64,000 bases of DNA from an uncultured Verrucomicrobiae bacterium (GTDB lineage: Bacteria > Chlamydiota > Chlamydiia > Chlamydiales > Rhabdochlamydiaceae), in NCBI GenBank assembly GCA_963731265.1, contig CAVSUE010000002.1, positions 32,001-96,000 on the forward strand, read 5' to 3'. Below the pieces are notes generated by a model. It made no database searches and was not told the DNA's origin. It saw nothing but the letters and a program-made list of their open reading frames with translations. Numbering within the stretch: the first letter of the stretch is position 1; every line of letters begins with the position of its first letter. Position numbers and translations under genes: made by a program. Positions 54,372 to 54,484 of this stretch are shown in pieces.

Positions 54372-54484
54372 CCGTCCTCCGGCGGAAACCCGGCCCTTAA
54401 GGGCCGGGTATTTTCAAAAACAATGTTGGGCCGAGTTCGAAGCTCGGCCCCAACTTAATCCCAGGCCTTAAGGCCTGGGTTCAC
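54372..54484 (-). mobile_element. Copy of the 111-bp palindromic element filling the sdhC-sdhA gap
   Basis: Reverse complement of 33456-33566, ending ...ggaggacgg|ATGAAA of sdhA. Confidence 0.92.

Follow-up and report, generated by a model that had tools for sequence, protein, structure and literature searches.

A short IS605-related element inserted in front of ATGAA gene starts in a Rhabdochlamydiaceae genome

Introduction

Palindrome-associated transposable elements (PATEs) were defined in Haloquadratum walsbyi, from IS605-type transposons (PMC3119063). Here we describe a comparable element found in a 64,000-nucleotide (nt) stretch of DNA from an uncultured Verrucomicrobiae bacterium that GTDB places in the Rhabdochlamydiaceae (assembly GCA_963731265.1, contig CAVSUE010000002.1, positions 32,001 to 96,000; this whole stretch is called the window below). 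The element is 111–113 nt long, and one full copy lies at 54372..54484 on the minus strand, between an sdhC-like gene and sdhA. We consider it very probable that the element is a PATE related to an IS605-type element of the same genome, here called ISx, that its target is ATGAA, often at a gene start, and that it supplies a Shine-Dalgarno (SD) motif in front of the ATG and, at stop/start overlaps, a stop codon.

Like our element, the PATEs of H. walsbyi have no terminal inverted repeats, carry palindromes near both termini, cause no target duplication, lack a transposase, and are related to IS605-type elements of the same genome (PMC3119063). Our element differs from them in that its target is a start-codon context and its left end reads as an SD motif on the gene strand; in the available part of PMC3119063, no mention of start codons or ribosome-binding motifs was seen.

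The IS200/IS605 mechanism and the targets TTCAT and N/ATGA (the slash marks the insertion point) have already been published for the superfamily. The ISGst elements of Geobacillus stearothermophilus have clade-specific left-end motifs, TTCAT in the IscB element ISGst5 and TTTAT in the TnpB element ISGst2 (Meers et al. 2023, PMC10055086). These are the same two pentamers as those of our element and ISx, and the ISGst elements also form a family with similar ends, in which gene-less PATE-like members were predicted to move in trans. However, the host belongs to a different phylum, the work deals with RNA-guided nucleases, and no link to gene starts was seen in the part available. N/ATGA targets were listed for ISC and IS605B elements (Kapitonov et al. 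2016, PMC4810608), which resemble ours in that they insert right upstream of ATGA without duplication, as shown by empty sites in related genomes. But these elements are 1–2 kb long and encode TnpB or IscB, and the term "start codon" occurs 0 times in the available text of PMC4810608. A first-pass annotation, made from the letters of the window alone, had cited ATGA(A)-like motifs for IscB-type members; such reports do exist, for N/ATGA in PMC4810608 and for TTCAT beside an IscB element in PMC10055086.

In IS608 of Helicobacter pylori the linkers have 19 and 10 nt, and each hairpin has guide bases on its 5′ side; this IS inserts into single-stranded DNA, 3′ of a tetra- or pentanucleotide, with a preference for the lagging-strand template (He et al. 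2013, PMC3597680). Our element is similar to it in having subterminal hairpins with a long left and a short right linker (17 and 5 nt), and the GAAT that stands 5′ of the right hairpin in ISx is found in IS608 too. IS608 differs from our element in being autonomous and in its target, TTAC; our element is known here from sequence alone.

The Neisseria REP2 and Borrelia IR repeats also have internal stem-loops, lie right upstream of genes, and place a ribosome-binding site by the ATG (Delihas 2011, PMC3184786). REP2, however, contains a promoter, a ribosome-binding site and the ATG within the repeat and has no known transposition mechanism (PMC3184786), whereas our element contains only the GGAGG, takes its ATG from the target DNA, shows 0 promoter-like sites in 53900–54900, and can be assigned a mechanism. 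The palindromic elements of Rickettsia are likewise small mobile elements of an obligate intracellular bacterium that do not destroy genes, but they insert in frame within open reading frames (ORFs) and add peptide segments (PMC10969869), while our element stays just outside the ORF. [quoted passage not shown] No start-codon-occupying PATE with a ribosome-binding motif was found in the literature searched (including passages of PMC10969869, PMC3184786 and PMC2775950), which is no proof that none exists.

Copies and structure of the element

The genome containing the window (G000) has 2.34 Mb in two contigs (C1 and C2), with 46% G+C. BLASTN with one copy as query gave 49 element matches of at least 50 nt genome-wide, an abundance far beyond chance. 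In the window, in addition to the minus-strand copy at 54372, there are two copies arranged head to tail (33344..33455 and 33456..33566, plus strand), one at 38247..38357 (plus strand), and a partial one at 61111..61201 (plus strand), which matches query positions 22–116 and lacks the right-end hairpin. These positions agree with the first-pass annotation, and so do the 3′ flanks it had listed, which read GTGAA, ATGAA, ATGAA, ATGAA and ATCAA in the order 33344, 33456, 38247, 54372 and 61111.

The copies of the window end in ...CCGGAGGACGG, but that at 38247 ends in CCGAAAGACGG, its GGAGG being mutated to GAAAG. The first G of the first tandem copy completes the TAG stop of ORF 31953–33344. The second tandem copy directly precedes ATGAA at 33567–33571, the start of ORF 33567–33896, as had been noted before; this ORF has 109 amino acids (aa) and a signal-peptide-like N-terminus, and no Pfam family was found for it. 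The TGA at 38248–38250 within the 38247 copy ends ORF 37342–38250, and only a 30-codon ORF follows this copy, from 38358. This small ORF (38358–38450), for which Pfam gave no match, overlaps the start of ORF 38435–38794; it could be a small gene, or what is left of a gene start. A 47-nt repeat with arms of 87% complementarity occurs at 61064–61110 and 10286–10332, and the former adjoins the partial copy at 61111, in place of its right-end hairpin.

The element consists of three strong GC-rich hairpins and a small fourth one around the GGAGG. In the sdh copy, which has 113 nt, the minus strand reads GTGAA...GGACGG and the plus strand, the top strand of the element, CCGTCC...GGGTTCAC. Folding placed the left-end subterminal hairpin at 54388..54409, 17 nt off the cleavage point, the central hairpin at 54425..54454, and the right-end subterminal hairpin at 54460..54479; the left-end hairpin also aligns with that of ISx. 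Between hairpin and border there are 17 nt on the left side and 5 nt on the right, so the linkers are asymmetric. The left-end linker contains the GGAGG (54376..54380, minus strand), and the right end is formed by the element-borne pentamer GTGAA (54480..54484, minus strand; TTCAC on the top strand), which holds a TGA that is not used as a stop at this copy. The RNA fold of the sdh copy had −64.2 kcal/mol against −45.2 ± 4.1 for shuffled sequences, and its single-stranded DNA fold had −37.3 against −18.2 ± 2.7; none of the 200 shuffles attained the native value with either fold.

The first-pass annotation had described a 111-bp palindromic element. Its length is in fact 111–113 nt, and the hairpins are palindromic but the element as a whole is not: its ends are not inverted repeats of one another, and terminal inverted repeats are absent. 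It is too short for a transposase gene. Rfam at gathering thresholds gave no family at the element within the window, and an E-value search of the ISx locus, which includes one copy, gave only sub-threshold chance matches.

Target and borders

Comparison of occupied and empty sites gave the borders and target directly. The mobile unit is GTGAA...GGACGG and is inserted at N/ATGAA without target duplication, that is, 3′ of TTCAT on the opposite strand. At the sdh copy the target pentamer is at 54367..54371 (minus strand; TTCAT on the plus strand), and its ATG is the first start codon of sdhA. One ISx copy of the genome (copy A) reads ATGAA, a 112-nt element and ATGAA again, where the paralogous copy B has a single ATGAA; the ISx copies of two relatives, G002 and G003, are likewise empty at that point. 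In G003, the closest relative of G000 (88–97% DNA identity), the copies that G000 has at C1:360010 and C1:361507 are missing, and each of the two sites holds one TTCAT. Conversely, G000 lacks the G003 copy L043, the empty site reading ATGAA, and also reads ATGAA at the sites of four copies (L049, L053, L054 and L056) from the more distant G002 and G004. Since every empty site holds one ATGAA, there is no true duplication, which bears out the earlier claim on this point.

That the element itself begins with GTGAA had not been remarked before. The filled copies at 360010, L043, L054 and L056 all begin with GTGAA while their four empty sites read ATGAA, and GTGAA is therefore part of the element. 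Among 41 full copies the first base was G in 31, A in 8 and C in 1, with a gap in 1. It goes with subfamilies: of the eight copies starting with A (ATGAA), three share two internal variants and two a divergent core. The variable left base had led us to consider a model in which the target is on the left, with insertion 3′ of RTGAA (R, A or G) and the ATGAA carried by the element; this was ruled out by the empty sites and by the subfamily linkage. The tandem pair has the order GTGAA-E-GTGAA-E-ATGAA (E, element body), which fits two insertions at one target.

The 3′ flank is ATGAA in 40 of 47 copies of this genome. We also scanned other genomes, one per species, with a pattern ending at GGACGG, so that the flank was unbiased. 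Among the matches listed, at least 76 were in records titled Chlamydiae, Rhabdochlamydiaceae, Candidatus Rhabdochlamydia or Parachlamydiales, some of them labelled Verrucomicrobia or Verrucomicrobiae. The flank was ATGAA in 43 of these 76 listed matches and ATCAA, ATAAA or ATTAA in 17 more (ATNAA, 60/76), which likewise supports insertion beside a fixed pentamer. At least five further listed matches to the pattern were in unrelated taxa and had no element body.

Relationship to ISx

ISx is about 1.71 kb long, has a Y1 tnpA and a divergent tnpB, and is present in this genome and in the genus. Its borders were defined from five copies in three genomes, and its proteins belong to the families PF01797 (Y1 transposase) and PF01385, PF07282 and PF12323 (TnpB). 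Two copies are present in G000, both outside the window: copy A (C1:926562–928384), which carries the element between the divergent tnpB and tnpA, and copy B (C1:315819–317530), which is 94–97% identical to copy A and has no element. The tnpA genes of these two copies, each beside tnpB, were the only Y1 genes found in the genome. In copy A the element sits on an ATGAA that is the in-frame start of tnpA in other ISx copies.

On the tnpB strand, ISx reads TTTAT/CCAC...GGTTCAA/, and the element, on the strand complementary to the downstream gene, reads TTCAT/CCGTCC...GGGTTCAC/. Direct alignment of the left ends gave a score of 39 (shuffles 9.3 ± 5.8; 0 of 2000 reached it), and that of the right ends a score of 23 (shuffles 5.2 ± 4.7; 3 of 2000 reached it). 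By these alignments the ends of the element are homologous to those of ISx. Because the ends match those of an IS605-type element with Y1 tnpA and tnpB in the same genome, the element is best classified as a non-autonomous PATE of the IS200/IS605 superfamily, derived from or related to ISx. The subterminal hairpins and the lack of terminal inverted repeats agree with this assignment, which the first-pass annotation had proposed. The end homology suggests that an ISx-type TnpA mobilised the element.

A possible difference in the guide bases was seen 5′ of the left hairpin, GAAAA in ISx and GGAAA in the element, next to the T-to-C difference in the target. We kept a base-pairing rule between guide and target as a hint only, since its register changes with the alignment chosen and nothing comparable is seen at the right end. 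Among the 18 other genomes of the genus, 11 were found to contain the element, against 0 of 12 from other families of the order; the ISx TnpA query gave matches in 6 of the 19 genus genomes (G000 included), several of them fragmentary. With replichores taken from GC skew alone (origin near C2:0.2 Mb, terminus near C1:1.05 Mb), 33 of the 49 copies have the top strand of the element on the lagging-strand template (p = 0.02).

Another candidate parent, a 2.2-kb TnpB element, was rejected because its ends are unrelated to those of our element. It occurs in nine places (C1:41586–43795 and eight others), five full copies being 98.6–100% identical and four shorter or split ones 96–99%. Its two proteins are one of 208 aa, whose N-terminus is helix-turn-helix-like, and a TnpB of 522 aa, and it is a putative IS607-type element.

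Occupation of start codons and stop/start overlaps

Of the 46 copies with an intact right end, 28 (61%) adjoin an ORF of at least 100 aa that starts at the flanking ATG. These represent 27 distinct ORFs, since reading from the first tandem copy continues through the second. Of the 8001 ATGAA words in the genome, 882 are in non-coding DNA and 275–368 at gene starts. If only gene-start and non-coding ATGAA words tolerate insertion, the expected share at starts is 24–29%, and the observed share exceeds it with p = 1e-5 to 1e-7; these expected values depend on a crude gene set (ORFs of at least 100 aa chosen greedily without a gene caller, 1864 genes, 88% coding). Occupancy per site was about 7.6% at starts, 21% at stop/start overlaps, and about 2% at non-coding ATGAA.

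The starts are genuine, as the first-pass annotation had supposed when it let the target coincide with ATG-AAx starts. Nine of 11 downstream ORFs put to Pfam have families, most of which begin within nine residues of the ATG: SdhA, pyridine-nucleotide-disulphide oxidoreductase, a VTT-domain protein, ABC-3, methylpurine glycosylase, phosphoesterase, an outer-membrane efflux protein, the FtsW/RodA family, and a cytidylyltransferase-like (NadD-like) protein. Among 60 copies fetched from six other genomes, 29 are followed by a reading frame without a stop for 168 codons or up to the locus end.

The upstream side is also affected. In 18 of 43 copies with an intact left end, an upstream frame of at least 100 codons stops in the element, in its TGA (17) or a TAG (1). 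These 18 copies are insertions into ATGA (or TAATG) stop/start overlaps, where the element restores the lost stop. ATGAA-type stop/start overlaps were occupied in 16 cases and unoccupied in 59 (21% of 75 occupied). Both the enrichment at starts and overlaps and the intact state of the downstream genes were observed.

The sdhC-sdhA junction

The sdhA gene (52482..54371, minus strand) is intact, with 629 aa and FAD_binding_2 from residue 7. The sdhC-like gene (54490..55368, minus strand) encodes 292 aa with the Pfam family Sdh_cyt, and its stop codon is 5 nt before the element. As the first-pass annotation had it, the element fills nearly the whole gap and directly adjoins the sdhA ATG; the identities of both genes now rest on Pfam. 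In five relatives the sdhC-sdhA gap has only 1–15 nt and no element. In contigs from two metagenome runs (X2 and X10), only nine letters, different from ours, separate 54368 from 54489; they represent a related strain that lacks the element and has an sdhA start resembling that of G002. Since the gap is empty in the five relatives and in the two metagenome contigs, the insertion is recent and lineage-specific.

A second ATG two codons into sdhA corresponds to the conserved MGKE start of the relatives, and either ATG could serve as the start. The region 53900–54900, which contained no promoter-like site, had one terminator-like site (the central hairpin) against 1.9 expected. The scan thus gives no support for either role at the sdh copy.

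The GGAGG motif and alternative explanations

The 3′ end of the 16S rRNA is canonical (...CACCTCCTTT), and the GGAGG of the element is complementary to it. Four-base SD words were found before 35% of predicted starts compared with 11.6% of random positions, and five-base words before 11.5% compared with 2%. This enrichment indicates that the organism uses the SD mechanism, though not at every gene. In the element the GGAGG is 4 nt 5′ of the ATG and unpaired in the centroid RNA fold; the native leader has been shifted 112 nt by the insertion, and the left-end linker of ISx has no GGAGG at that place. For these reasons, together with the SD usage of the organism, ribosomes likely use the GGAGG of the element.

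Several observations weigh against the explanation that we prefer. GGAGG or AGAGG is kept in 28 of 28 gene-start copies compared with 17 of 19 others, which is not significant (Fisher p = 0.16); the earlier statement that GGAGG is intact where a real gene follows thus holds within the window but not as a genome-wide difference. Nor does GGAGG vary in any of the 38 copies fetched from G012 and G013, whether these are genic or not, and the small hairpin that encloses it shows one compensatory double change. The consensus sequences of all six compared genomes are identical over both terminal modules, the GGAGG linker included, also when their cores are different. The linker may thus be conserved because transposition requires it or because the copies are young, rather than through use by ribosomes. 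The crude gene set behind the expected values has been mentioned. As to mobility, the tnpA of copy A encodes HVQ where copy B, G002 and G006 have HVH (the HUH metal-binding motif) and its first 16 codons are out of frame, while the tnpA of copy B has a frameshift at a later point; the gene is intact in G002. Both copies here look defective, no working transposase is evident in this genome from its sequence, and probably nothing moves the element in it at present. No Y1 match was found in the copy-rich genomes G013 (at least 56 element matches, 64% complete) and G012 (29 matches, 74% complete). Finally, 17 of the 21 non-genic copies have the lagging-strand orientation, but among gene-start copies the count is 16 of 28 and there is no strand bias.

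The element might then be a PATE that is only a tolerated passenger, with GGAGG and TGA as by-products of its end sequence and the enrichment at starts due to survivorship, translation being achieved by coupling or at A-rich starts. The TGA is indeed not peculiar to the element, since the right end of ISx on that strand reads TTGAACC, and so the stop would be inherited rather than new; many genes evidently manage without a four-base SD motif, and the behaviour of GGAGG in non-genic copies and within the small hairpin fits as well. However, the absence of GGAGG from the ISx linker suggests that the chemistry of the family does not need it there, and survivorship has to account for an occupancy several times that of non-coding ATGAA at starts, and higher again at overlaps. 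Moreover, likely essential genes (the FtsW/RodA family gene, the NadD-like gene and sdhA) are intact behind the element with no other SD motif in reach. We consider this account possible, though on the whole unlikely.

The opposite possibility is that many copies are kept because they are useful, by uncoupling genes, by offering a strong ribosome-binding site, or by protecting or processing mRNA through their hairpins, like repetitive extragenic palindromic (REP) elements in operons. The occupancy of 21% at ATGAA overlaps, against about 2% at non-coding sites, speaks for this. Three subfamilies differ in the stem sequence of the central hairpin but keep its pairing, four pairs being changed on both sides in 4–10 of 17 sequences; the structure is thus retained through compensatory changes although the sequence is free, but it may serve transposition instead. 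Four of 14 fetched copies of G002 and G004 are at sites that are also occupied in G000 (C1:112464, 1247941, 1735644 and 1464558, compared with loci L051, L052, L057 and L059), each with the subfamily marks of its own genome. At C1:112464, shared with G002, the copies are 90% alike and the adjoining coding DNA 77%. This points to repeated insertion at few permissive sites, gene conversion between copies, or selection, and the first two could explain the re-use of sites. At sdhC-sdhA, the empty gaps of the relatives and metagenome contigs argue that the insertion is not needed. Widespread co-option seems to us quite improbable.

The RTGAA at both borders of nearly every copy mimics a 5-bp duplication and suggests a classical MITE, with terminal inverted repeats and a DDE transposase that duplicates its RTGAA target. 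This has next to no likelihood because 31 of the 41 full copies have different left and right pentamers (G and A), the first base goes with subfamilies, the ends are not mutual inverted repeats, and empty sites read ATGAA even where the left pentamer is GTGAA. Equally implausible is a REP repeat or REP doublet forming a hairpin (REPIN) spread by a domesticated REP-associated tyrosine transposase (RAYT): RAYTs belong to the Y1 enzymes, and a short conserved word does stand next to the GC-rich palindromic hairpins, but the Y1 genes here occur only inside ISx next to tnpB with IS-type ends, no single gene is flanked by inverted element copies (the copy in ISx copy A lies at the tnpA start and does not flank tnpA), and the four hairpins form one fixed composite unit that has a defined target.

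Other repeats in the window

Palindromic units of about 180 nt, with 85-nt arms and 9 nt between them, occur at 41110–41288 and 55390–55558, and related sequence is nested in two element copies outside the window (C1:1280451–1280714 and C1:1281271–1281540). Three collinear direct repeats with 71–82% identity and a spacing of about 1.23–1.26 kb link 43575–44427 with 44835–45663, which look like two tandem paralogous genes. Two further repeat pairs were found, one of 127 nt with 87% complementarity (13136–13262 and 63098–63224) and one of 208 nt, direct, with 94% identity (17712–17919 and 19141–19348).

Discussion

The PATE explanation, which we prefer, would work as follows. By the known mechanism of the family, a Y1 transposase would bind both subterminal hairpins on one DNA strand and excise it. 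The excised strand would be re-inserted 3′ of the pentamer recognised by the left end, TTCAT for the element and TTTAT for ISx, which on the opposite strand is an insertion exactly 5′ of ATGAA without duplication. As ATG-AAx (Met-Lys or Met-Asn) is a very common gene start, many of the permissive targets would be start codons. The ORF would be left untouched and its native leader pushed 112 nt upstream. On the gene strand the left-end linker ends in CCGGAGGACGG and would thus place an SD motif 4 nt before the ATG, while the right end, starting with GTGAA, would restore a TGA (or TAG) to an upstream gene that overlaps the start. Copies may also retune translation or mRNA processing, as the first-pass annotation proposed.

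A more far-reaching reading is that the transposon has become specialised for translation starts. Its left end would have changed the target word from TTTAT to TTCAT, possibly through an A-to-G change in the guide, and gained the SD motif, so that insertion repairs itself, and the host would keep or regain copies at operon junctions to uncouple or boost translation or to stabilise mRNA. We put this forward as a speculative idea and hold it to be doubtful.

The choice of target alone can steer a single-strand transposon to gene starts across a genome, because the reverse complement of a known IS200/IS605 target word is a very common start-codon context. The insertion offsets its own damage, ORFs being intact even in 4-base overlaps of core operons (sdh, cell division, NAD synthesis). 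ISx and the element form a natural pair with adjacent motifs one base apart, which bears on the coding of targets by the left end in TnpB and IscB biology. In annotation, leaders of 112 nt and stops restored by the element will lead to wrong calls of start codons and operons. Should ribosomes use the motif, some 27 genes in this reduced genome would be translated from a transposon-borne ribosome-binding site.

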